From the NCBI GenBank assembly GCA_015059145.1, contig SVAZ01000006.1, positions 2,268-66,267 on the forward strand: DNA of 64,000 nucleotides, in the 5' to 3' direction. The notes beneath the pieces are model-generated. The model was not told the DNA's origin and made no database searches. It saw nothing but the letters and a program-made list of their open reading frames with translations. The stretch comes from Erysipelotrichaceae bacterium. Its GTDB lineage: Bacteria > Bacillota_I > Bacilli_A > Acholeplasmatales > Anaeroplasmataceae. A program made the translations under genes and the position numbers. This document shows, one piece after another, positions 3,157 through 64,000 of this stretch (the stretch's first letter is position 1; each line of letters opens with the position of its first letter).

Positions 3157-6100
3157 TTAATCAAGCTTTGTTATTTCAGCCTTTAATATTGATAGTAAAT
3201 AGATATTAATATCCTTATCCCATTTACTCTTTACATATTCTTTATAAATGCCTAATTGTCTTATATATTCAGGGCTATCTACATTAGACAGCTTATAATC
3301 GATTATATCAACATGATCATCATAAACCACTAATAGGTCGATGATGCCGTGATATTCATCATTATCCTTATTAAAATAAAACTCATGCTCATGATATGTT
3401 TTAGCATTACTTATGCTTTTAAATATATCATGAGATAAAACCTTATTGATTGTATCCTTGATAAAGGAATCGACTGGAAGTGCATCAATGTTAGGATTAG
3501 AAAAATCTAACGCTTCAAGTGCACTATGAAATCTTAGTCCTAAGGCGATACTTTCCTTAACCTCCTTAGTTGGAAGCTTTAAAAGCTCCTTAGAGATTCT
3601 AACATTCTCAAGCTTTGGTGGTAGCTTAGGTATATCATAGGAAATATCTTCAGCTCCTACAAGGTCACTCTTAGCATGCTTCTTTCTCTTATAATCCTCT
3701 GTTATACCAGAAGGAAATACTTCTACAGTATATTCATTATAAGCATTTGTATAGGCAAGCATTTCTTGAAATGATTTAAATTTTTTAGGATTTAAATTAT
3801 TATATTCCTTATCCTTTAAAATTAGAATAAGCTTCTCTCTTGCTCTAGTCAAGGCAACATACAATAATCTAACCTTTTCAGATATATCCTGTGATGAGGT
3901 CATATTGCCTACCAGTGTCTTTACAATTGTATTTGATTTACCCTCATCAGCAAATGGGATATATATACCATATTTCATATTAAAGCCACATGTAGCTCTA
4001 ATATCCTCCTGATTAAAGCTAGAGGATAATAATGGGAAAATACAATAAGGGAATTCTAACCCCTTTGACTTGTGAATAGTCATAATTCTAACACTATCAG
4101 AATTTTGAGATGCAAGCTTATATGGAAGCTTTATATCTCCCTCAAACACCTCAGATAAATACGTAGCAACAGCCTTTATATCCATTGAGGCTTGTAAAAA
4201 TGCATCAAACATTTTTGATATATATTCTAATACTGCAATAGAATTATCAACATCACCAATAAGAGAAAGCTTTTCATAAATCGCTAATTTCTCACATATT
4301 TTTGTAAACAGCTGTGGATATGATAACTCATTCATACCCGCAAGGCTATTAATATCTTCTAATATAGGATACTCTTTATTTAATTTAATAAGCTGATAAA
4401 TATCATTATCCGTATATTCATATAAAAAGCTTCTTGCTAAAGCCGCAAGTGAATGCTTATATTGAATATCATATTCCTTATTTTTCACCTTGTAAATAAG
4501 TGTAACTATATTAGAAAAAAGCTTAGGAAGGATAGAATCCTTTAAATCTAAATCAGCTTCTATAGATAAAGGAATTCCTAAGTATTCAAATATCTTTTTA
4601 AAGGTAGGAAAGCTTTTAGCCTTATCTATTAGTATTGCAAAATCACTATAGCTTACATCCTTATAGCCATTTCTTTTTAGCACCTTATTCTTAGAAGCAA
4701 TAATCTCCTTAATCTTATTAGCAGTAATAAATGCTTCTATTTCCTCAGTTGTAAATTTATCATCCTCAAAGCTATATGTTAGTGCTTCTAGATTAAAATC
4801 ATATTCCTGCTTAAGGTCATCATATGCTTTTAAGCCATAATTCATTTGATGCTCATATGAGTAATTTGCATCACCACATGAATCAGTCATTAATCTATTA
4901 AATAGTAAATTTATATTATCTAAAACCTCATGACGTGATCTAAAATTAAATGATAAATCTATTTTATAGCCTCCATCATTTTTAGAATAGCTATCATACT
5001 TGCTTTTAAAAATATACGGGTTAGCATTTCTAAATCTGTAGATGCTTTGCTTAATATCACCGACCATATATAAATTATCATTTGCTATTTCACTAATAAA
5101 TGCCTCTTGAATATCAGAGGTATCCTGATATTCATCAACTAATATTTCATTATAAAAATATTTCAGATCATTTCTTACATCATCAAATTCTCTAACAAGC
5201 TTTATGGCCATTTTAGCAATATCAGTATAATCAAAAAGCATTACACTCTTCTTATATTCAAATAATCTTCTTGAAACCTCATCACATATATCAAGTAGGA
5301 ACAATACGTCATTCTTAATTGATAAAAGCTCTGTTTTCATATCAGCCTTAAAAATATATTTACCAAATACATTGGTCTTTAAATTTTTAAGAATAGCACC
5401 ACAGGCATCCTTAAGCTCCTTAACTGCTTGTGAAGCCTTTGTGCTTACTCTAGGTAGTGATAATCCTGATAAATATCTATAGAAATCATCATAATCATTG
5501 AATCCTTCTAGATCTGAAATAACTACCTCAAGCTTATCAACCAGTGATTGATTAACAATCAAATCCTTATTACATTCCTTAACTAAGTCTGTCAAGGCAA
5601 TGATTAATTCAGCTACAGATTCCTTTGCATAAATTTCATACTCATCAATCATTCTATCAAGCTTATCCTCGTTATAATATACAGACTCATAGCCTTTTTT
5701 AAATGATTCATAGTTTACTATAAGCTCAAGCTTACCAATAAGCTTTTCTACAACATCGACTACATCCTTATCTCCCTGACGAGAATACTTTTTTAAATAC
5801 TGTAAAAACCTAGCATTCTCAGAATCATAATATTCCTTAAACAAGCCTTCTATTATGCTTCTACGCTTAATCCTAATAAGTGGAGAATCCATAATTGAAA
5901 TACTTTTAGAAATGCCTAGCTTATAATAATACTTCTTTACAAGCGCAAGGCTATAAGCATCAAATGTAGTAATATAAGCAGAATCTATGTAGGTAGCCTG
6001 CTCAAAAAGATTATTCTCTAATAGCTTCGCTCTTATTCTTTCCTTCATCTCCCTTGCTGCAGCGTTAGTAAATGTTAGTACTAAAACCTTGCGAATATCA

Positions 6101-39797: not shown

Positions 39798-42005
39798 TTA
39801 TGCCAAAATTATTAATAATAATTCAGTTGAATCACCCTTTGTAATCTCATGTGATCCAGCAGCGATTGTAATTGTAAGTACTCCATCTGAATTAGCAGTA
39901 TAGCTAGTATCATCAATTTTTATTCTCTTTGATGGAGCAGTTATTACTAATGTTATTGTCATTTCTTTATCAGTGGTAAATTTTATAAATGTTGAGCCTT
40001 CTAGCTTTAAGGCTTTAGTTAATACATAATCTCCGTAGGTAAAATCATAAGTCTTATCCTTCATATTACCAACAATAGTAAAATATTCATTACCATTGTT
40101 TTCAAACTCAGAAACATTATAAACAATTGATCCCTCTATAACAGATGAGCTATTACCTCCTGTAGATTCCTCTTCTGTAGAATCTCCCGGATTATCACTA
40201 TTAGCCTCTTCTCCTAAGATTTGAACAATACTAGATTTATAATTTGCAATCTTAGATTTTAATTCTGCTATAACCGCATAATTAGAATCCTCAACAGCAT
40301 CATCAAATTCATATTTTAAATCTCCACCATTGATACGACCAGCATATGTCATTACCTTTTCCTTAGCAACCTGTGGTGTATCTACAGTATATGCATAAAA
40401 ATCTGAAGCAGTATCAAAATTATTATAAGCTGTTCCGCCAGCAACAGTAATAACAGTTGATGGGATAACCTCATCACGGCTTGAAGCTAAATATGCATCA
40501 AAGCTTAAATTAGATGAGCTGTAGTAAATAACCTCATTCCCACCCTCAATATGATTACCATAGGCTTTAATAATTCCTCCATCCTCACCACTAAAAGTTC
40601 CTTCTCCTAAAGCGTCTGTACCTTGCTTAGATGAAAGCATTGGATTTTTACAATTTCTAAAATAATTATTTTCAACGAATATAGAAGCACCTGTAGTGGC
40701 ACCAATACCATACTTCGCATTTCCATCGAAGAAATTATTATAAACATGAACTGTACAAGTTCTTACACGTGGATGTCTAGAATCAGAATGATCATACCAA
40801 TTATGATGATATGTTATTTTATTATCCACTGTTTCTGCCTTCATTCCTTGTAGATTAGATTTACCTGAATCCCAAAAATGATTATAGGAATGAGTGACAT
40901 ATGTAGATAACTTAGTATCTAACGCTCCATCACCCTTTACTTGGTCTGCATCACTACCTGCATCTCCGTAAAAGAAATCACAATTATGAACCCAAATGTG
41001 ATTATTTTCTTGTTGTAAACCTATGTTGTCTCCTTCTTCACTATTACAATTCATAGTTGCAAGATTTCTAACCTCTACATTAGATGAGCCCTTAATTCTA
41101 ATACCAAAGCCATTAATTACAGAATCCTCACCAATACCCTCTAATGTAATACCATTAGTAGCTCCATCTATTAAAAGGTCTCCCTTTTCTAATACAGATG
41201 GATCTGTAATATTACCAACAAATCTAACACACAATGGTGTAGTAATTGTTTTTTTGTGTGCAGCAATGATATTTTGAACTCCAGTAAATGTTGTTGTTCC
41301 AGAAGTCAACGAAACTGAGTCCTTAGTCTTTTGTGTAACATAAATAACATTAGCATTACTCCTTAAGCTTCCATCATTGTTGTATGCGCCTGAAGATGTT
41401 CCATCTACAAAGGCATAGCCTGATCTATCATGAGCTGCAACGGTTACGTTTGCAGTTGCAGCATCACTTCCCTCTCCATCATCAAAAACTGGAGCAATTT
41501 TTAAAGTGTAATTTCCAGCTCTTAATCCAACCACATCGGCTCTTAAATGATCTGAATATAATCTAATTAATTGAGTATCTATTTTAGAGTAGCTTGAAGC
41601 ATTCTCCTCTTTATAATAAACATTATAGCTAATTGCAGAGCTAACACCTGTCCATTCAATATAAGCACTCTCCAAATGTCCCGCACTGCGCTTAATGCTA
41701 ATTGAGCTAGATGAGTTAACACTATCCCATACAGGATTAGATGGTGTTACCTGCTCATTAGAATCACCTGCTCCTGTACCTTGATTACCAGAATCATTTG
41801 TAGATGTGTTTTCGTCATTGTTTAAATTGGAGTTATCAGTCACTGGAGTGCCTGTCTCATTTGAATTACTATTATTATTTTCTATCTCATTGTTATTTAT
41901 ATTATCGTCGTTATTATCCTTTGGACTATCTTTAGTATCGCATGATGCCATAAAAAATGCCATCAATAGCATAATACCTCCAAAAAGTATTCTTTTCATT
42001 TTCAT
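39798..42005 (-). CDS. Lipoprotein pectate lyase PL1 with Fn3-like N-domain and CBM77-like C-domain
   Basis: Lipobox MASC; IWVHNCDF, GDGALD, RHPRVR; C-terminal LTKALKLEGST...GSHEITKGD. Confidence 0.88.
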   Translation of the reverse strand: MKMKRILFGGIMLLMAFFMASCDTKDSPKDNNDDNINNNEIENNNSNSNETGTPVTDNSNLNNDENTSTNDSGNQGTGAGDSNEQVTPSNPVWDSVNSSSSISIKRSAGHLESAYIEWTGVSSAISYNVYYKEENASSYSKIDTQLIRLYSDHLRADVVGLRAGNYTLKIAPVFDDGEGSDAATANVTVAAHDRSGYAFVDGTSSGAYNNDGSLRSNANVIYVTQKTKDSVSLTSGTTTFTGVQNIIAAHKKTITTPLCVRFVGNITDPSVLEKGDLLIDGATNGITLEGIGEDSVINGFGIRIKGSSNVEVRNLATMNCNSEEGDNIGLQQENNHIWVHNCDFFYGDAGSDADQVKGDGALDTKLSTYVTHSYNHFWDSGKSNLQGMKAETVDNKITYHHNWYDHSDSRHPRVRTCTVHVYNNFFDGNAKYGIGATTGASIFVENNYFRNCKNPMLSSKQGTDALGEGTFSGEDGGIIKAYGNHIEGGNEVIYYSSSNLSFDAYLASSRDEVIPSTVITVAGGTAYNNFDTASDFYAYTVDTPQVAKEKVMTYAGRINGGDLKYEFDDAVEDSNYAVIAELKSKIANYKSSIVQILGEEANSDNPGDSTEEESTGGNSSSVIEGSIVYNVSEFENNGNEYFTIVGNMKDKTYDFTYGDYVLTKALKLEGSTFIKFTTDKEMTITLVITAPSKRIKIDDTSYTANSDGVLTITIAAGSHEITKGDSTELLLIILA

Positions 42006-54760: not shown

Positions 54761-55603
54761 TTATTTAACTATAAAGGTTTTATCATCATCAAAGTCTATA
54801 ATTCTATCCTTATATAATCCACCATAAGCACGTTTAAATGCCTTTCTACTCATCCTGAATATCTTTTCAATATCCTCTGAGCTTGACTTGGCAGTAAGCT
54901 TCATGATGCCATGATGCTCATTCATATAATCTAAAATTATTTGTCTATCACCATCAATTAGATTTTCCTTTAATGTATTCAGCGTTCCATAGCATTCACC
55001 GTCTAAGTTCTTAGTTATTATTACACTAATTTCTTGACCCAATCTATAGCTTCCTCTGAATTGTGAATTTGGAACGAAAACATACATGTTATGTACAGTA
55101 ATAATACCTAATCCCTTTTCAGCAATTCTAATTACATTTCCTAATACCTCTTCACGCTCAGCATATTGAATATTTGCTTTTAGCTCTTTAATTTCAAATC
55201 TGTTTAATGGCTTACCAGTTAAAATATTACCTTTAACCTTTAACCTAATAAATAACTTATCACCAGCCACTGGCCAAAGAGCTTCATCAAATGGAAGATA
55301 GTCCTTTGATATTAAAATATCCTTAGGCGTATTTATGTTAACAAATACACCAACACCACTCATAACCTCTATAACCTCGGCATATCCAGCCTTTGAAATA
55401 GTCGCAGTTGGCTCCTGTTGTGTTGCTGTTAATCTTTTTTCCTTATCTGAATATATAAATACTGATAGCTCTTCATCAGCAGCTAATTCCTTTGTAGCTT
55501 GCTTAAAGTGCATTAGTACCTCTTCCTTACCATCAGTAAGCATATATCCTAAATCAGATTTTCTTATGACTCTTAAGGTATTATAATCGCCTAATTTAAT
55601 CAA
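54761..55603 (-). CDS. cvfB: CvfB-family S1 RNA-binding protein
   Basis: LGDYNTLRV...GYML, VFIYSDKEKRL, C-terminal MSRKAFKRAYGGLYK winged-helix motif; TTG start. Confidence 0.88.
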   Translation of the reverse strand: MIKLGDYNTLRVIRKSDLGYMLTDGKEEVLMHFKQATKELAADEELSVFIYSDKEKRLTATQQEPTATISKAGYAEVIEVMSGVGVFVNINTPKDILISKDYLPFDEALWPVAGDKLFIRLKVKGNILTGKPLNRFEIKELKANIQYAEREEVLGNVIRIAEKGLGIITVHNMYVFVPNSQFRGSYRLGQEISVIITKNLDGECYGTLNTLKENLIDGDRQIILDYMNEHHGIMKLTAKSSSEDIEKIFRMSRKAFKRAYGGLYKDRIIDFDDDKTFIVK

Positions 55604-55737
55604 TTACGATCACCATCCTTATAATTTCTATCAGTTTGCTTAAGATACATTTCTTTTTTTGAATCAAAGCTATTTGTCTTTTTCTTTGATTCAAACTTCT
55701 TAATTAGTTCCTTCTCCTTCTGTGTCAGGTTCTTCAT
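55600..55737 (-). CDS. Small 45-aa Lys-rich protein (absent from ORF track)
   Basis: MKNLTQKEKELIKKFESKKKTNSFDSKKEMYLKQTDRNYKDGDRN; stop overlaps the cvfB TTG (TTGA); AAGGATGTG upstream. Confidence 0.6.
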   Translation of the reverse strand: MKNLTQKEKELIKKFESKKKTNSFDSKKEMYLKQTDRNYKDGDRN

Positions 55738-56158
55738 TACCCATCACATCCTTTTCAAAATTTATTTGCTTAATACCCATTTCCTCTAAAACCTTAATAA
55801 TTCTATCAATATTGTCCTCAGTTGTAAAGGTGTCAGCAATACCCTTATGATAATGGATTTCAATAAATCTTTTATTTCTATCAAATAAAGTTAAAGTATT
55901 ATTAAAGCTCCTTACTGTAAATGCATATGCTTCCATTATTCTTAAATCAATGCTAAAATCTTCCTTTGGCTGAAGGCGTCTTAAAAATAAAGATAGCTTT
56001 TGGAAGTGAAGCATAGTTTTATTCATGCTCATAACAAAATCAGCTTGACCCTCATTATATATCTTACCCATATTTCTTTTTAAATAAACTATGCAAGGCT
56101 TAACACCCTTAAGCTTGCCAGTATTTCTTAATTCCATAATTATTCTTCTACGTTGCAT
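55700..56158 (-). CDS. Hypothetical protein
   Basis: GAGGT RBS and TG-TATAAT upstream favour ATG 56158 (152 aa). Confidence 0.75.
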   Translation of the reverse strand: MQRRRIIMELRNTGKLKGVKPCIVYLKRNMGKIYNEGQADFVMSMNKTMLHFQKLSLFLRRLQPKEDFSIDLRIMEAYAFTVRSFNNTLTLFDRNKRFIEIHYHKGIADTFTTEDNIDRIIKVLEEMGIKQINFEKDVMGNEEPDTEGEGTN

Positions 56159-56223
56159 AATATATACCTCGGTTAGTATTATAACATACATTTTAATTTT
56201 TTTAAAAAAGTTTGACAAAATAT

Positions 56224-56252
56224 TTGACAAGCGCTTTCATAAGTGCTATTAT
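56224..56252 (+). promoter_or_regulatory. sigmaA promoter overlapped by a cre/LacI-like operator
   Basis: TTGACA-N17-TATTAT with extended TG; minus strand ATGAAAGCGCTTGTCAA has one perfect cre half-site and the AAGCGCTT core. Confidence 0.7.
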
Positions 56253-56258
56253 ATAAGT

Positions 56259-56335
56259 AGAAATTGACTTTTCAAATAATCTCTCCCAAAAAAGCGAAAA
56301 GGGCCAATCATTTGATTGGTCCTTTTCGTTATTTA
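56259..56335 (+). ncRNA. Candidate small RNA
   Basis: No credible gene between the promoter and a bidirectional terminator; contains a CUCUCCC motif. Prediction only. Confidence 0.45.
56295..56328. terminator. Bidirectional terminator
   Basis: CGAAAAGGGCCAATCA-TT-TGATTGGTCCTTTTCG with U-rich tails on both strands. Confidence 0.85.
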
Positions 56336-57219
56336 TTTTTTAAGTTATCATTTAAGCTTTTTAATAGCTTATATAAAACCTTATTAACAGGAACATCGAT
56401 ACCCTTTGCCTCAGCAAGCTTAATCAATGTAGGTGAAAAGCTCTCTAATTCATTATATTCAGAATTATAAAAATCCAATGTCAATGATGTAACCCTATCA
56501 GATGTGAATGCTTCACATCTTTTATTTGTTTCTTTTAGATCATCTTCATCAAGCCCTATATTATACGCTTGTGAAACTATGTATACCTCTTTAAATATAT
56601 CACTCATTAATTCCTTTAATAACGGATGAGACATATCCTTATATGTAGCATTGCATAAGGCCGATATTTGATTAATTCCCATATTGAGCATCCACTTAAG
56701 CCATACTCTTTTCTTCATAGACGGGTATATCATATGATTTACATTGTATTGAGTTAATAAACGATCGATTTGTAATAAATATTCCTTTATAGGCTCATTA
56801 AACTCCTCACCAAATTGAAGATTAATGATTCTACTAGTTTTTAAAACATTATCCTTTTTGTTAGCCTCTACATTTATTACACCATATAAGACATTATTAT
56901 TTTTAAAATAATCTTGAAGGATATCATGAGCCATAATACCATTTAGAAGTGGAATAATAATAGTATCCTTAGAAACAAATATTTCTAAATCCTTAAGTGA
57001 AGACTCTAGCTGATAATTTTTCACACAAACAAAGATTATATCAGGCTTTATGCTAGAGGTATAATTTGGATTAAACCTCTTATCATTAATAATGATTCCA
57101 TTTTCCTTATATCTAGCTATTCTATTTTCATCCGCTAATATATATAAATCCTTATATCCATATAATTCATTTAATAGTGCGCAGCCAACTGCCCCCATCC
57201 CAAATATTCCAATCCTCAT
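56329..57219 (-). CDS. panE: Ketopantoate reductase family protein
   Basis: GIFGMGAVG, CVKNYQ, LLNG, WLKWMLN, SLTLD..ELE; start ATG 57219. Confidence 0.85.
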   Translation of the reverse strand: MRIGIFGMGAVGCALLNELYGYKDLYILADENRIARYKENGIIINDKRFNPNYTSSIKPDIIFVCVKNYQLESSLKDLEIFVSKDTIIIPLLNGIMAHDILQDYFKNNNVLYGVINVEANKKDNVLKTSRIINLQFGEEFNEPIKEYLLQIDRLLTQYNVNHMIYPSMKKRVWLKWMLNMGINQISALCNATYKDMSHPLLKELMSDIFKEVYIVSQAYNIGLDEDDLKETNKRCEAFTSDRVTSLTLDFYNSEYNELESFSPTLIKLAEAKGIDVPVNKVLYKLLKSLNDNLKNK

Positions 57220-57265
57220 ATAAACCTCCAAAATGGTACAGCAATAACTGTACCATTTTTTTAAA

Positions 57266-58255
57266 TTATAAATTTGCAATAATTGCGTTAGTTAATTCCT
57301 TAGTAGTAGCACTACCACCTAAATCCTTAGTTAATGCCTTACCATCATTTAAAGTTTTTAAAATAGCGTCAGTAATTTTCTTACCAATTTCCTTCTTGCC
57401 CATATGATCAAGCATCATAACTGCAGCCTGAAGTAAAGCAATTGGATTTGCGATACCTTGACCAGCAATATCAGGAGCTGACCCATGAACAGCTTCAAAA
57501 ATTGCAACATCCTTACCTAGGTTAGCACCTGGTACTAATCCTAATCCACCAACTAAACCAGCAATTAAGTCAGAGATAATATCTCCATAAAGATTTGGAG
57601 CAACTAATACATCGTACTTTTCAGGATACATTACTAATTGCATACACATATTATCAATAATCTTATCATCAAATGCGATAGTAGGATATTCCTTTGCAAT
57701 TTCTCTAAATCTAGCTAAGAATAATCCATCTGTTTGTTTAAGAATATTTGCTTTATGAATACAAGTAACCTTCTTACGATTATTTTCCTTAGCATATTCA
57801 AAAGCATATCTTATAATTCTATCAGTTGCAGGAACTGTAATTCTCTTAATGGCTTCAAAGCCATTTTCAATTTCATGCTCCTCACCAATATATAAATCCT
57901 CTGTATTTTCTCTTACTGTAACAATATCAACATTTTGATATTTAGAAATATTTGCAAAAGAATATGCAGGTCTTAAGTTTGTATATAAGTCAAATGCTAA
58001 ACGTAAATTAACATTTACTGAACGGAATCCTTTACCAACTGGAGTTGTAACAGGACCCTTTAAAGCCACCTTATATTTCTTAATTGCTTCTAAAGTTTCA
58101 GCAGGAATTAATTCTCCACACTTATCATAAGAAGTCTGACCAATATCAAATGTATGATATTTTAAATCAGCACCAGCTGCATCTAAAATGCTGCAAACGG
58201 CCTCTACTATTTCTGGACCAATTCCATCACCTGGAAGTAAAACTATATCTGTCAT
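57266..58255 (-). CDS. icd: Isocitrate dehydrogenase (IDH/IPMDH family)
   Basis: GDGIGPEI, KGPVTTP, RENTED, HKANI, NLYGDIISD, EAVHGSAPDIAG; in operon with acn and citrate synthase. Confidence 0.9.
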   Translation of the reverse strand: MTDIVLLPGDGIGPEIVEAVCSILDAAGADLKYHTFDIGQTSYDKCGELIPAETLEAIKKYKVALKGPVTTPVGKGFRSVNVNLRLAFDLYTNLRPAYSFANISKYQNVDIVTVRENTEDLYIGEEHEIENGFEAIKRITVPATDRIIRYAFEYAKENNRKKVTCIHKANILKQTDGLFLARFREIAKEYPTIAFDDKIIDNMCMQLVMYPEKYDVLVAPNLYGDIISDLIAGLVGGLGLVPGANLGKDVAIFEAVHGSAPDIAGQGIANPIALLQAAVMMLDHMGKKEIGKKITDAILKTLNDGKALTKDLGGSATTKELTNAIIANL

Positions 58256-58257
58256 TA

Positions 58258-59562
58258 TTATTTCTCCTCTTTTCCTACATATTTTGTTGCAGGTCTTACA
58301 ATCTTATTACAATATAATAAATTCTCAATATCGTGAGAAATCCATCCCACAATTCTCGCGGCTGCAAAAATTGGAATAAATAAATCACGTGGAATGCCAA
58401 GCATTTCATAAATCAAGCCTGAATAAAAATCAACATTAGCACAGCAATCCATGCCCTTCTTTTCCTTTAAAGCCTTAAGTGCAAGCTTCTCAAATCTATA
58501 ATAGAATTCAAATTTCTTTAGATTCTTTTCCTTAGCTAATGCTTCTGCTTCACCTCTTAACAATTCACATCTTGGATCAGAAAGTGAATATATTGCATGG
58601 CCTATACCATATATTAAACCAGTTTGGTCAAAGAATTTTTTATTTAAAATCTTTTCAATTATCTTATTAATTTCATCATCAGTAGCATCTAAGCCAATTT
58701 CATTTATAACCTCATTCATCATATCAAGGTTAGCCATATTAGCACCACCATGACGCGGTCCCTTTAATGATGCCATAGATGCCGAAATCATTGAATATAA
58801 ATCTGTTAATGTTGATGATACTACAGTACCAACAAACGCAGAGTTATTTCCACCACCATGATCAGCATGAACCATTAAGCATGTATCTAAGGTCTTTGCC
58901 TCTAAATCAGTAAACTTACCATCATTACGTGATAAATATAAGACATTTTCAGCAAAAGAATATTCCTTCTTAGGGAAATGAATATGTAATGCATCATGAT
59001 CTAAATAATGAGTTTTAGCTTGTAATGAATATGAAATAATTGCAGGCATTTTTCCAATTAATGAAATAGCCTTTTTAATTAATTCAAATGGCTCAATATC
59101 ATCTGGATTTTCATCAAATGAATATAAAGATAATATTGATCTTGATATATGATTCATTAATGATTTAGATGGATTCTTTAAAATAATATTTTCTAAAAAT
59201 CCTTCTGGTAAATCATATTCCTCACTTAATAATTCTCTAAATTCCTTAGCTTCAGCCTCATTTGGATAATGACCAAATAATAATAGGAAGCAGGTATTTT
59301 CATAGCCAAAATCATCACCACACATATTAGCAACATCAGCTATATCAATACCACGATAATATAAGTTACCCTTCTTAGGCTGCTTAACATTATCAACTAC
59401 AGTATAACCTGAAACCTCACATACCTTTGTAAGGCCTACAAGTACTCCTGTTCCATTATCATTTCTTAAGCCACGCTTAACCTTATATTCATCATATAGG
59501 CTTGGCTCAATAAATCCATCCTTAAGAAGCTCTTGAAATTTTTTCTTTAAAAAATCTCCCAT
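58258..59562 (-). CDS. Citrate synthase
   Basis: RGLRNDNGTGVLVG, HADHGGGNNS, GPRHGGAN, GIGHAIY..DPR, NVDFYSG. Confidence 0.95.
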   Translation of the reverse strand: MGDFLKKKFQELLKDGFIEPSLYDEYKVKRGLRNDNGTGVLVGLTKVCEVSGYTVVDNVKQPKKGNLYYRGIDIADVANMCGDDFGYENTCFLLLFGHYPNEAEAKEFRELLSEEYDLPEGFLENIILKNPSKSLMNHISRSILSLYSFDENPDDIEPFELIKKAISLIGKMPAIISYSLQAKTHYLDHDALHIHFPKKEYSFAENVLYLSRNDGKFTDLEAKTLDTCLMVHADHGGGNNSAFVGTVVSSTLTDLYSMISASMASLKGPRHGGANMANLDMMNEVINEIGLDATDDEINKIIEKILNKKFFDQTGLIYGIGHAIYSLSDPRCELLRGEAEALAKEKNLKKFEFYYRFEKLALKALKEKKGMDCCANVDFYSGLIYEMLGIPRDLFIPIFAAARIVGWISHDIENLLYCNKIVRPATKYVGKEEK

Positions 59563-59587
59563 ACTTTCACCTACTTTATAATTATTT

Positions 59588-60202
59588 TTATTTTATATAA
59601 AGTGTTTTGATTACCTTTTCTTTTACTTCATAAACATGTAAATATAATTTTTTACCTTTAGATAGTAAATAATAAATTAATTCATTATCAATATCTACTA
59701 GATTAGAAATATCAATTGTTTCTAATCCTAATAAATAATAAAAATCACTGGTGCTATTACATATATCTTTAGATGTTATTTCATATATTCCTTCTTTTAA
59801 GGAATTATGATAATAATTCTTTTTTATATAAAAATCAGCTATTATATTTGCCAAATTTTTATCATCAATATTTAATAATAATTCTATAGCATCATTTGTT
59901 AATCCACATAATGACAGCATATATTTATTGTTTGATTTATGAACTATAATTTTTTCAAATAATCCTTTAACAAATAATTTTAATTCTTTAAATTCAACTT
60001 CATTACACTCATAATTATATACAAATGAATCACCATGTAAATAACATGAACCTAATATAAAATAAAGATATTTATATTTTTCTAAGCAACAATCTAATTC
60101 TTTTATTTTACGATTTATAAAAGAATACCTAGCTACTACAAAATCCTCATTATTATTTAATATATTAAAATCATTTTCTAATTTTGTAATTTCTAATTTC
60201 AT
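59588..60202 (-). CDS. Hypothetical protein, very AT-rich
   Basis: 204-aa ORF between acn and citrate synthase; no motif recognised. Confidence 0.65.
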   Translation of the reverse strand: MKLEITKLENDFNILNNNEDFVVARYSFINRKIKELDCCLEKYKYLYFILGSCYLHGDSFVYNYECNEVEFKELKLFVKGLFEKIIVHKSNNKYMLSLCGLTNDAIELLLNIDDKNLANIIADFYIKKNYYHNSLKEGIYEITSKDICNSTSDFYYLLGLETIDISNLVDIDNELIYYLLSKGKKLYLHVYEVKEKVIKTLYIK

Positions 60203-60206
60203 ATAA

Positions 60207-62072
60207 TTAGAAGGTATTTAATAATCCACCGCAATTAATAAGGCTTAATTCTTCTTCAGTTAAATCACATGAAGTAGCATATTCCTTATTCTTAGTCTTA
60301 TTAATTACCTTAATATCCTTTTCATTCCAAACAACTTCAATTTCATCTAATAAATCAGCCTCAATAGCAAGCTCAATAGGTAAAATACCAAAGTTAATTA
60401 AATTCTTCTTATGAATTCTAGCAAATGATGCTGCAATAACAGCCTTAATTCCTAAATAACGAGGAGCAATTGCTGCATGCTCTCTTGAAGAGCCTTGACC
60501 ATAATTAGAACCAGCAACAATAACACCAGCTCCATTATCTAAGCATCTTTGAGAGAATCCCTCATCAATATTAGAGAATACGAATTCAGAAATCTTTTCA
60601 ATATTACTACGATAAGGTAATACCTTAGCACCTGCAGGCATGATATGATCTGTTGTAATATTATCCTCTAAAGTAATCATTGCCTTAGCAGTAAAGCTAT
60701 TACCGATAGGTGCAAACTTAGGAATTGGCTTAATGTTTGGACCCATTACAACCTCAGATGTAAATGTTGGCTTATATAATAAGCTATCACACTTAGGATA
60801 TTCAACATCTAAAGAGAAATCATTTAATTCCATACCAAGTGGTGATGAAATATAACCGTTTACTGCAGATAATGCAGCAACCTCAGGAGATACTAAATAT
60901 ACCTTAGCTGAGTTTGTACCGCTTCTACCATAGAAGTTACGATTAAATGTTCTAAGTGATACTGCATCAGTTGCAGGTGATTGACCCATACCGATACATG
61001 GACCACATGCTGATTCTAAAATTCTAGCACCAGCCTCTAATAATACATCTAAAATACCATTCTTTGTAATCATTTGTAATACTTGTTGGCTACCAGGAGC
61101 AATTCCTAAAGACACATCCTTATGAATTCTCTTACCCTTTAAAATTGAAGCAACCTTAACAAAGTCATAATAGCTTGAGTTTGTACAGCTACCAATTAAT
61201 ACTTGGTCAACCTTAATATTAGCTAATTCCTTTACTTCCTTAACTGCATCTGGAGAATTAGGACAAGAAGCAACTGGCTCTAGCTCTGCTAAATCAATTG
61301 TAATATTTTCATCATATTCACAGCCCTCATCAGCACTTAATTCTACGAAATCCTCTTCTCTTGATTGTAGCTTTAAGAATGCTCTAGTTTGCTCATCTGA
61401 TGGGAATACTGATGATGTAGCACCTAATTCAGCGCCCATATTACAAATAGTTGCACGCTCAGGTACTGTTAATGATTTAACACCCTCACCATAATATTCA
61501 ATAACCTTATTTACTCCGCCCTTAACTGTCATCTTACCAATTAAGTAAATGATGATATCCTTAGCTGATACACCACCGCGAAGCTTATTTAATAGCTTAA
61601 CACCAACTACCTTTGGTCTAACAATTGAAAAAGGCATACCAGCCATTGCGCATGCAACATCTAGTCCACCAGCACCAATTGCAAGTGCTCCTACACCAGA
61701 AGATGTAGGTGTATGTGAATCTGATCCTAATAGAGTCTTACCAGGCTTTGCAAATCTTTCTAGATTTACTTGATGGCAAATACCATTACCAGCCTTTGAA
61801 TAAACAATACCATATTTATCTGCTACTGTTTGTAAGAACTTATGATCATCTGCATTCATAAATCCATTTTGTAATGTGTTGTGATCAACATAGCTTACTG
61901 ATAATTCTGTCTTAACCTTATCAATACCAAAGCTTAAAAACTCAAGGTATGCCATTGTACCAGTTGCATCCTGAGTTAATGTGTGATCGATTTTAATACT
62001 CATCTTGTTGTTTTCTAAATCTTCAGATACCTTATGTGCATCTAAAATCTTATAAGTTAATGTTTTCTTCAT
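60207..62072 (-). CDS. acnA: Aconitate hydratase
   Basis: TQDATG, GICHQ, GSDSHT, GSCTN, CGPCIG, FNRNF, TTDHI, GSSREHA. Confidence 0.95.
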   Translation of the reverse strand: MKKTLTYKILDAHKVSEDLENNKMSIKIDHTLTQDATGTMAYLEFLSFGIDKVKTELSVSYVDHNTLQNGFMNADDHKFLQTVADKYGIVYSKAGNGICHQVNLERFAKPGKTLLGSDSHTPTSSGVGALAIGAGGLDVACAMAGMPFSIVRPKVVGVKLLNKLRGGVSAKDIIIYLIGKMTVKGGVNKVIEYYGEGVKSLTVPERATICNMGAELGATSSVFPSDEQTRAFLKLQSREEDFVELSADEGCEYDENITIDLAELEPVASCPNSPDAVKEVKELANIKVDQVLIGSCTNSSYYDFVKVASILKGKRIHKDVSLGIAPGSQQVLQMITKNGILDVLLEAGARILESACGPCIGMGQSPATDAVSLRTFNRNFYGRSGTNSAKVYLVSPEVAALSAVNGYISSPLGMELNDFSLDVEYPKCDSLLYKPTFTSEVVMGPNIKPIPKFAPIGNSFTAKAMITLEDNITTDHIMPAGAKVLPYRSNIEKISEFVFSNIDEGFSQRCLDNGAGVIVAGSNYGQGSSREHAAIAPRYLGIKAVIAASFARIHKKNLINFGILPIELAIEADLLDEIEVVWNEKDIKVINKTKNKEYATSCDLTEEELSLINCGGLLNTF

Positions 62073-63444: not shown

Positions 63445-63632
63445 AAAAAACGCCCCTAGAATAATCTAAGGACGAAATAATCGCGGTACCACCTTAGTTC
63501 CATATAATAATATATATGGCACTCAATAAAAGCTTTCTCATAGAGTGTATTTCATATATTATCCTATACTTGTTTTCACCAACCACAAGCTCTCTAAAAT
63601 ATAAATAATATACTACTTAATATCTAATCATC
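63445..63632 (-). promoter_or_regulatory. Tyrosine T-box riboswitch
   Basis: AGTAG, AGAGAG, GGTG elements; specifier GAAA-TAC (63547-63549); AAGGTGGTACCGCG (63482-63495); terminator with U tract. Confidence 0.93.
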
Positions 63633-63639
63633 GAAATAT

Positions 63640-64000
63640 TTATTTTGATTCTCTTTCCACAACCTGATAAGGTAATACAACCTTACTAGCAGTAACCTCT
63701 TCATGCTTCATATACTTTGTTAGAAGTCTCATTGATACTGCTCCTATATCATACACCGGAGTATCCACACATGTCAAGTTAGGACGTGATAAAATTGCAT
63801 ATTTAGTGTTTTGAAGACCAACGATAGAAATATCCTTTGGAATATCAAAGCCTTGCTTAATTGCTTCATTCATAAAGCTAACAGCAATACTATCTCTTAC
63901 AGAAATAACACCATCAACATCATAGTTCTTCAAAAACTCCTCAAAATGTAGCTTGTTAACAGCAACATCTCCACTTGTTCTAAATACTAATGGCTCTAAG
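63640..64000 (-). CDS. ccpA: Catabolite control protein A, C-terminal part (partial)
   Basis: RPNLTCVDTPVYDIGAVSMRLLTKYM matches the CcpA C-terminus; frame open to the window end. Confidence 0.85.
   Translation of the reverse strand, partial: LEPLVFRTSGDVAVNKLHFEEFLKNYDVDGVISVRDSIAVSFMNEAIKQGFDIPKDISIVGLQNTKYAILSRPNLTCVDTPVYDIGAVSMRLLTKYMKHEEVTASKVVLPYQVVERESK

Follow-up and report, generated by a model that had tools for sequence, protein, structure and literature searches.

A candidate small RNA gene with a conserved unpaired C-rich core in Anaeroplasmataceae-like gut bacteria

A stretch of 64,000 nucleotides (nt) from contig SVAZ01000006.1 of the Erysipelotrichaceae bacterium assembly GCA_015059145.1 (family Anaeroplasmataceae), referred to below as the window, contains between two minus-strand genes a short plus-strand element that appears to be a small RNA (sRNA) gene. 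By computation alone, it is considered likely, with good confidence, that the gene is functional and independently transcribed. The explanation that best covers the whole of the observations, to which a probability of about 0.6 may be given, is that a single-copy, lineage-specific sRNA of ~80 nt acts in trans by pairing with Shine-Dalgarno (SD) sequences, and that it is repressed by a LacI-family protein in those loci designated type A. The gene appears to be specific to the Anaeroplasmataceae/Acholeplasmatales-like lineage. The sRNA is very probably conserved across uncultured gut Anaeroplasma/Acholeplasma-like bacteria; its transcription, sugar control and targets are predictions. The element has the general properties of a trans-acting sRNA gene, namely its own promoter, an intrinsic terminator, no conserved open reading frame (ORF), and conservation across species.

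Promoter, core and terminator

Homologues of the element were collected in two ways. With the 18-mer AATAATCTCTCCCWAAAA as query, a scan of metagenomes gave at least 120 stretches, ~90 of which are unrelated or chance matches, and only the stretches with both promoter and hairpin were kept. With so AT-rich a query of 18 nt and a collection this large, unrelated contexts are expected by chance. The full architecture is present in ~25 among the matches listed. After removal of duplicates and incomplete copies, 24 distinct full-length copies were aligned (A2). The metagenome copies were retrieved with the core as query, and the invariance of the core in them is therefore circular. An unbiased set was reached through p152, the gene next to the element and divergent from it; it comprises the window and loci L001, L002, L003, L005, L006, L127/L128, L129, L130 and L132, with p152 identities to the window of 40–63%. 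Matches of ~100% identity to the window stretch come from faecal and gut metagenomes only, and the metagenome-assembled genomes (MAGs) with p152 relatives are labelled Anaeroplasmataceae, Anaeroplasma sp., Candidatus Avacholeplasma and Acholeplasmatales.

The element is present in all ten p152-reached loci, which were found independently of the motif. The 13-nt sequence AATAATCTCTCCC is identical in nine of the ten by direct reading; for L129 there is a 90-bit model score only. The neighbouring proteins are only 32–63% identical across the genera in which the element is conserved. In five genomes fetched through p152, the strand opposite p152 carries TTGACA, a 17-nt spacer, a -10 hexamer, ~10–30 variable nt, ACTTTTCAAAATAATCTCTCCCAAAAA, a hairpin and a T-run, and the sequence of the hairpin differs among the five. 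The promoter regions of other syntenic genes (e.g. orf124), taken as a control, keep only the -10 and the SD sequence.

The promoter is of the sigma-A type, with the -35 hexamer TTGACA at 56224-56229, a spacer of 17 nt, TG at 56244-56245 (-15/-14), and the -10 hexamer TATTAT at 56247-56252. A near-consensus promoter of this form, with the TG, had been proposed in an earlier reading of the sequence (the original prediction); it is borne out by a pattern scan, in which it is the top promoter-like site of 55000-58000, and by conservation in 24 copies. In A2, TTGAC is found in 23 of the 24 copies (TTTAC in L058), the spacer is exactly 17 bp in all of them, and the T, A, and final T of the -10 (TAnnnT) are invariant. 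The sequence is randomised upstream of the -35, just 3' of the -10, and at the apex of the hairpin. An extra TTGACA occurs at 56212-56217, 12 nt upstream of the -35 (GTTTGACAAAATATTTGACAAG); it is specific to the window and not conserved in relatives.

Transcription would start at A56259, 7 nt past the -10, and end within the U-tract at 56331-56341. The predicted RNA (56259-56339) folds with a minimum free energy (MFE) of -27.7 kcal/mol (z = -6.4 relative to shuffles) into three parts: a 4-bp 5' hairpin (SL1), the unpaired AAAUAAUCUCUCCCAAAAAA, and the terminator. The support for SL1 is weaker than that for the terminator. It reads AAAAG/CUUUU in most type A loci, adopts a GAAAA/UUUUC register in some, reads AUAAG/CUUAU in the second group of loci (type B), which amounts to one compensatory pair, and is absent in L003. 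The unpaired segment AAAUAAUCUCUCCCAAAAA is ~19 nt long; in the window it is predicted at 56274-56292 and includes AAUAAUCUCUCCCAAAAAA, and the C-rich CUCUCCC lies inside the core at 56281-56287. The unpaired C-rich segment of the original prediction is thus recovered, being single-stranded in both the MFE and the centroid folds, with an invariant core in relatives. The core consensus, AAUAAUCUCUCCC(A/U)AAAA, is single-stranded and invariant among the homologous loci, with a C-rich single-stranded length of 13–19 nt across genera and slightly varying flanks (CCCT in L002; ...AAAAC in L130 and L132). It occurs as a single copy in the window.

The core is followed by the terminator hairpin, which has an A-run before its stem and a T-run after it. 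Because the A-run precedes the hairpin, the terminator can work in both directions, as had been claimed; its stem has 17 pairs and covaries in relatives. Terminator-like sites number five in 55000-58000, with 0.8 expected. Compensatory changes are reported by RNAalifold at 11 of the 12 terminator pairs, and an explicit count finds changes on both sides in nine of the ten pairs of the main helix (helix 2). The covariation score of the whole structure is 0.384, compared with 0.200 ± 0.017 in shuffles (reached by none of 500) and 0.11–0.16 for slid partners. The covariance model of the element (R1) has one strong match in the window, at 56256-56339 (+; 76.2 bits, E 1.2e-12), the next match being the same hairpin read backwards, and it finds one copy per related locus.

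No Rfam match for the element was found in the window at the gathering threshold, and at E ≤ 10 the segment 56000-56500 gave only terminator-driven chance matches (psm_mec, AbsR25, GibS, MicC), far below their thresholds. The comparison with Rfam and the search for covariation in relatives, both suggested as checks, hence return no known family and a covarying terminator; conservation of promoter and seed, the other point to be checked, extends across genera for both. The sole plus-strand ORF is a 68-amino-acid (aa) TTG frame that runs through the terminator and, in antisense, into panE. It is not conserved, in keeping with the earlier statement that no credible gene follows the promoter. The coordinates of the features are listed in Table 1.

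Table 1. Coordinates of the element and of other features of the window
Feature	Position	Strand	Remarks
Intergenic region	56159-56328		between two minus-strand genes, p152 and panE
sRNA promoter, sigma-A-type	56224..56252	+	11/12 positions matched, upstream TG
Putative operator over -35 and spacer (TGACAAGCGCTTTCATA)	56225..56241		LacI-family-like imperfect palindrome, central CG
Predicted sRNA transcript, ~80 nt	56259..56341	+	covariance model R1 and fold
5' stem-loop SL1 (GAAA/UUUC in window)	56260..56273	+	moderate support
Single-stranded core AAUAAUCUCUCCCAAAAA, proposed seed	56275..56292	+	unpaired in MFE and centroid structures
Bidirectional intrinsic terminator hairpin	56293..56330		17 pairs; common to convergent panE
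p152, divergent neighbour	55700..56158	-	152 aa; own extended -10 promoter
panE, ketopantoate reductase, convergent	56329..57219	-	Pfam ApbA/ApbA_C; outside sRNA element
orf45	55600-55737	-	45-48 codons
Pectate lyase gene	39798-42005	-	PF00544
ccpA-like LacI-family gene	63643-63999	-	last ~118 codons; cut by window end

Proposed regulation and mode of action

The putative operator has the pattern ACAA-N-CG-N-TTTCA, and the type A loci conserve TTGACAAGCGCTTTCATA in the spacer. Nineteen loci match the pattern TGAAARCGYTTKWCA. Within these, the core of the operator varies only at the two positions that flank the CG (AGCGCT, AACGTT, AGCGTT, AACGCT), and its arms are constant except for the 3' end TTTCACA in L130. 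With a fixed CG, free flanking positions, and dyad symmetry, the operator of the type A loci shows the conservation pattern of a LacI-type site. Judged from its sequence, it would behave as a dimeric LacI-family site, one arm of which is compromised by doubling as TTGACA. In L083 the operator is inverted and shifted upstream (5974-5988 in locus coordinates; TTATGAAAGCGCTTGACAA), and its imperfect arm still supplies the -35; this natural rearrangement could switch or weaken the regulation. A reading of the spacer as a Rex box was rejected, as the half-sites and their spacing fit poorly by hand alignment and the invariant central CG favours the LacI type. A supposed second copy of the operator upstream of the aconitase gene (TTGTTAAGCGTTTTAT) was also rejected on account of its different arm lengths, and a strict half-site search found no other copy in the window.

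The proposed mechanism may be outlined as follows. The sigma-A-type promoter, with its fixed 17-bp geometry, would give rise to an RNA of ~80 nt, predicted to extend from 56259 to ~56338 (+) and to consist of a short 5' hairpin, an unpaired core, and a covarying intrinsic terminator. This RNA would act in trans through the C-rich core, which would most likely pair with purine-rich (GGGAGAG / GGAG) SD regions and block the initiation of translation. In type A loci, which make up most of the members, a dimeric LacI-family regulator bound to the CG-centred operator over the -35 and spacer would repress transcription, the CcpA-like protein encoded in these genomes being the obvious candidate. The type B loci and L002, which have no operator, would be controlled differently. 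Pairing of the core with SD-like GGGAGAG/GGAG sequences is suggested by the anatomy of the RNA and by the precedent of RsaE/RoxS/RsaI (see below), and is given slightly less than an even chance. Repression of the type A copies by a LacI-family protein is held to be rather probable, and the proposal that this repressor is CcpA responding to sugar is tentative, at clearly less than even odds.

CcpA is put forward as a reasonable candidate repressor. The original prediction had placed ccpA in the window. The C-terminal ~118 codons of such a gene are present there, with TIGR01481 (ccpA) as the best model, and the remainder lies outside. The fragment in the window scores 100.6 bits on 119 aa against TIGR01481, versus 61 for the next model; this is below the cut-off because the protein is partial in the window. 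A ccpA-like fragment of 268 aa in L132 scores 175 bits, versus 87 for the next model, and is likewise below the curated cut-off.

Candidate targets were sought as duplexes with the unpaired region and as contiguous Watson-Crick complementarity in the region -30..+6 of 55 crude gene calls. The ribosome-binding sites (RBS) of the aconitase gene (UUUUGGGAG) and of the 5-enolpyruvylshikimate-3-phosphate (EPSP) synthase gene (GGAGAGAUU) each contain a complement of 9 nt, the start region of an amidase gene contains one of 8 nt, and the RBS of the pectate lyase gene contains one of 7 nt (GGAGAGA). The last had been singled out earlier, as the RBS of the PL1 gene. The GGAGAGA is indeed present and the gene is that of a pectate lyase; the match is unremarkable relative to shuffled cores, and the gene was set aside as a special target, 7 nt being at chance level. 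The start regions of the citrate synthase gene, icd, panE, p152, orf45, cvfB, orf124 and nfeD hold no conserved complementarity. A stretch of 64 kb is too short for the target set of this sRNA to be found.

Several observations weigh against the explanation given here. As regards targets, the 55 start regions of the window are no richer in complementarity to the core than to shuffled versions of it (P = 0.08 for ≥ 9 nt and 0.20 for ≥ 8 nt); L125 has the aconitase match and L083, L033/L021, L096 and L105 do not, and neither this match nor that of EPSP synthase is conserved beyond the closest relative. The invariant stretch of 19 nt exceeds the typical length of a seed, and could point to a protein partner or to a single highly conserved partner sequence. 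As regards regulation, the operator is absent from type B (L021, L032, L033, L061, L096) and from L002, in which the promoter is kept with unrelated AT-rich spacers. The site originally described as resembling a catabolite-responsive element (cre), TGACAAGCGCTTTCA (56225-56239), is not among the matches with at most one mismatch to the cre consensus TGWAANCGNTNWCA or WTGNAANCGNWNNCW. By hand alignment it has three mismatches to the former and at least two to the latter: its half-site CGCTTTCA is perfect, and the other half, TGACAAG, has an extra base that leads to the three mismatches. Degenerate cre patterns occur in the window at chance frequency (29 observed versus 22.8 expected). What remains of the cre-like site is a LacI-type operator conserved in type A, which fails the cre consensus and is missing in type B and L002.

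To these points may be added L131, whose p152 is 40% identical: its spacer of only 77 nt contains a plain terminator, the promoter of p152 and no sRNA element; therefore the RNA can be lost. As regards expression, the window sequence was not found in any public RNA run. The RNA-run contigs on a sheep-rumen homologue (L005) have a depth of ~2–8, are unstranded and of single-read size, and span the promoter, which is presumed to be untranscribed. On this locus, the bovine metatranscriptome X28 covers 3739-3991, and the depth is 0 over the initial ~230 coding nt of p152. The L005 contigs may reflect DNA carry-over or read-through, and RNAs of ~80 nt are poorly captured by such libraries.

The divergent gene p152 and alternative explanations

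Immediately upstream of the element and divergent from it, p152 is found in all 25 loci with enough flank, its ATG lying 112–234 bp from the core. It has its own promoter, with an extended -10 (TGTTATAAT) at 56186..56178 on the minus strand, and TGnTATAAT is conserved 20–35 nt before the ATG. The distance from this promoter to the sRNA operator ranges from ~35 to ~150 bp, and because of this variation a further role of the operator in the phased activation of p152 was rejected. A minus-strand p152 promoter inside the element (TTGAAA-16-TATAAT) was rejected as well, being specific to the window and lost in relatives. This match arises from the conserved TTTTCAA together with the AT-palindromic -10, its spacing shifts with the variable 5' segment, and it is gone in L003. 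The p152 protein has no Pfam or NCBIfam match, no DNA-binding domain was detected in it, and its family comprises 89 clusters, all at E ≤ 1e-30, with nothing more distant. Its AlphaFold2 model has a mean confidence (pLDDT) of 82, and the top PDB matches found with Foldseek are mostly PH/PTB-like domains with a TM-score of ~0.45. The protein is confidently predicted to form a PH-like beta-sandwich plus a helix at the C-terminus, with a basic helix at the N-terminus and a tail that is acidic and disordered. The gene order downstream of p152, orf45-cvfB-orf124-nfeD-flotillin, is conserved.

Alternatively, the RNA may be real and its core may serve something other than RBS pairing: it could be a binding site for a protein, either the neighbouring PH-like p152 or CvfB, an RNA-binding protein with an S1 domain whose gene lies two genes away, or a sponge or decoy for one highly conserved RNA. 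The 19-nt single-stranded stretch, invariant across genera and beyond the length of usual seeds, speaks for this, as do the strict adjacency of p152 (25 of 25 loci) next to a changing gene on the far side, the constant presence of p152-orf45-cvfB downstream, and the lack of any enriched or conserved mRNA target among the 55 genes searched. However, the whole region is syntenic in the clade, so that the adjacency may be plain inheritance; p152 has no recognisable nucleic-acid-binding domain, its fold matches being weak and generically PH-like; L131 keeps p152-cvfB without the sRNA; and the target search covered 55 genes only. An explanation of this type is considered rather unlikely. That the sRNA and p152 form a dedicated, lineage-restricted module, with p152 as a binding partner, chaperone, or regulator and the core as a protein-recognition element and not only a seed, is judged improbable.

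If there were no functional RNA, the conserved blocks would be DNA elements of the p152 control region (an operator, a UP-like or a far-upstream site) together with the terminator of the upstream operon. A reading of this kind is hard to reconcile with the invariant -35/17 bp/-10 geometry on the plus strand, the minus-strand match being lost in relatives, or with the conserved extended -10 that p152 has of its own near its ATG. A distance between the blocks and the p152 promoter that varies by >100 bp is incompatible with a phased DNA site, and the position of the core, fixed a few nt from the terminator hairpin, is an RNA-level arrangement. The reading is thus quite improbable, even though all genomes have the blocks upstream of p152, the minus-strand TTGAAA-16-TATAAT overlaps them in the window, and the A-run in the core also provides the U-tract for the terminator of the convergent gene. 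Very improbable is a cis insulator, i.e. a short transcript that collides or pairs with read-through from the panE, icd or tyrS operon and so shields p152, its sequence mattering little. The convergent arrangement and common terminator with whatever operon lies upstream would suit such a function, and one L005 RNA-run contig, spanning terminator to promoter, is compatible with read-through, but the read depth is too low to show it, the antisense overlap is limited to the hairpin, and the invariant core of 13–19 nt and the regulated operator are left unexplained. That a very small protein is encoded on either strand is hardly conceivable: GGGAGAG-N6-TTG on the minus strand could open a short frame, 8 codons long in the window, but the lengths of the frame are 6, 8, and 26 codons, indels shift it, L003 has no start, and no ATG, GTG or TTG frame is conserved on the plus strand. 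A small ORF on either strand was rejected on these grounds.

A trans-acting sRNA under LacI-family control in type A loci is the explanation retained. The element had also been described as overlapping the 3' untranslated region of panE in antisense. The overlap consists of the common terminator and 2 nt of the stop codon and nothing beyond, and the antisense relation is incidental, because the convergent gene differs in other genomes: it is panE in some, icd in L001, an aminotransferase-like gene in L003 (by eye, from an SFSK motif), and tyrS in L130 and L132, where it is preceded by a LacI-family gene. In type B, the nearest recognised gene on the far side is that of citrate synthase, ~0.9 kb off.

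Beyond panE, the minus strand of the window (57266-62072 and 63465-63999) holds a cluster composed of the ccpA-like gene, a T-box leader, and the genes for aconitase, a 204-aa protein, citrate synthase, isocitrate dehydrogenase, and PanE. The cluster is an oxidative branch of the tricarboxylic acid (TCA) cycle in a Mollicutes-like gut bacterium. The T-box leader that follows the ccpA-like gene matches RF00230 with 105.7 bits, and a tyrS after it is expected from the gene order of L130 and L132. In these two loci it is ccpA-tyrS that directly border the sRNA, and the TCA genes are not next to it. On the other side, orf45 overlaps the 3' end of p152, and its own end shares 4 nt with cvfB, which starts with TTG. 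The final ~20 codons of orf45 and the ~35 nt that precede cvfB (CAAACTGATAGAAATTATAAGGATGGTGATxGxAATTG) are near-invariant in nucleotides across all loci, synonymous positions included. No Pfam or NCBIfam match was found for orf45; it may represent a leader peptide with translational coupling, or else a structured initiation region of cvfB.

Two further contexts of the 18-mer were seen in the metagenome scan. A second set of mutually similar contigs (L007, L008, L014-L016, L019, L022, L025, L027, L030, L034, L042, L047, L071, L072, L085, L087, L088, L090, L091, L093, L098, L108, L110 and L113-L115) carries it as ...TTCATAATATTAT-AATAATCTCTCCCAAAAA-AATTTAGAATTTTTT..., with no TTGACA/17 bp promoter and no GC hairpin, ~75 nt upstream of a AAAGGAGGG RBS and in reverse orientation. 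These contigs are probably one unrelated lineage that was sampled repeatedly, a chance match to an 18-mer being plausible at that database size. In one sample set, an AT-rich repeat that is found on very large contigs, ≤ 530 kb in length, contains the CCCT variant of the 18-mer (L012, L020, L039, L050, L056, L068, L077, L089, L094, L101, L109, L119); this repeat is unrelated to the sRNA, and its host is possibly eukaryotic.

Relation to known small RNAs

The closest functional analogy to the proposal is RsaI (RsaOG) of Staphylococcus aureus, an sRNA that CcpA represses in the presence of abundant glucose and that pairs with SD sequences to repress translation (PMC9266662). Like the present element, it is a short intergenic sRNA with its own promoter and terminator. 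In contrast, no match to its covariance model was found in the window at the gathering threshold or in 56000-56500 at E ≤ 10, and there is no homology of sequence or structure. CcpA control is moreover deduced here from an imperfect operator, the organism is Acholeplasmatales-like and not a Staphylococcus, and the element is simpler, with one unpaired C-rich motif.

RsaE/RoxS of the Bacillales have unpaired UCCC/CCCC motifs that pair with the G-rich SD sequences of central-metabolism mRNAs, those of the TCA cycle included (PMC4409812, PMC6158497). The original prediction had likened the element to this class, and the unpaired C-rich segment upholds the likeness, as do the position of the gene beside the aconitase-citrate synthase-icd cluster and the 9-nt complement in the aconitase RBS. 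Membership in the class does not hold. The RsaE/RoxS covariance model has no match in the window at the gathering threshold or in 56000-56500 at E ≤ 10, and one C-rich motif (CUCUCCC) is found where the class has at least two UCCC/CCCC motifs. In further contrast, no control of the ResD/SrrAB/Rex type is evident here, the aconitase complementarity is not conserved, and the sRNA persists in genomes in which it has no such TCA genes beside it. RosA (S345) of Bacillus subtilis is transcribed under CcpA control, belongs to a central-metabolism sRNA network, and acts as a sponge of RoxS (PMC8216469). Control of the CcpA type is proposed for the present element too, but it has no homology to RosA and no sign of a sponge role.

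The back-to-back promoters of the sRNA and a protein gene, conserved as a pair, recall another arrangement. In enterobacteria, sRNA genes divergent from a partner gene are represented by oxyS/oxyR, gcvB/gcvA and sgrS/sgrR, in which the partner is a recognisable transcription factor. Unlike these partners, p152 is PH-like, without a detected DNA-binding domain.

No description of a trans-acting sRNA from the Acholeplasma/Anaeroplasma lineage came up in a full-text literature search on small RNAs in Acholeplasma, in agreement with what had been stated at the outset. The Anaeroplasma relatives of Acholeplasma are Mollicutes-like inhabitants of gut and rumen, and most knowledge of them comes from metagenomes. 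On the sequence evidence, the element appears to represent a new sRNA family of a well-known kind, without an Rfam family; it is placed outside RsaE/RoxS and RsaI because their covariance models were tested and gave no match.

No existing concept is overturned by such a family. It is a well-delimited candidate, with a promoter, an operator, a 19-nt core, a terminator, 24 natural variants, and a covariance model, and may be used for the annotation of MAGs, for searches of metatranscriptomes, and for tests in cultured Anaeroplasma. The partial TCA branch next to it gives a hint of where targets may lie. A module of the sRNA and p152, if real, would represent an sRNA-protein pair of a new type among wall-less Firmicutes. 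If LacI/CcpA-type control and SD pairing are true, the theme of sRNAs tied to carbon status, known from RsaI, RosA and RoxS/RsaE, would reach beyond the Bacillales to a very distant, genome-reduced branch of the Firmicutes.

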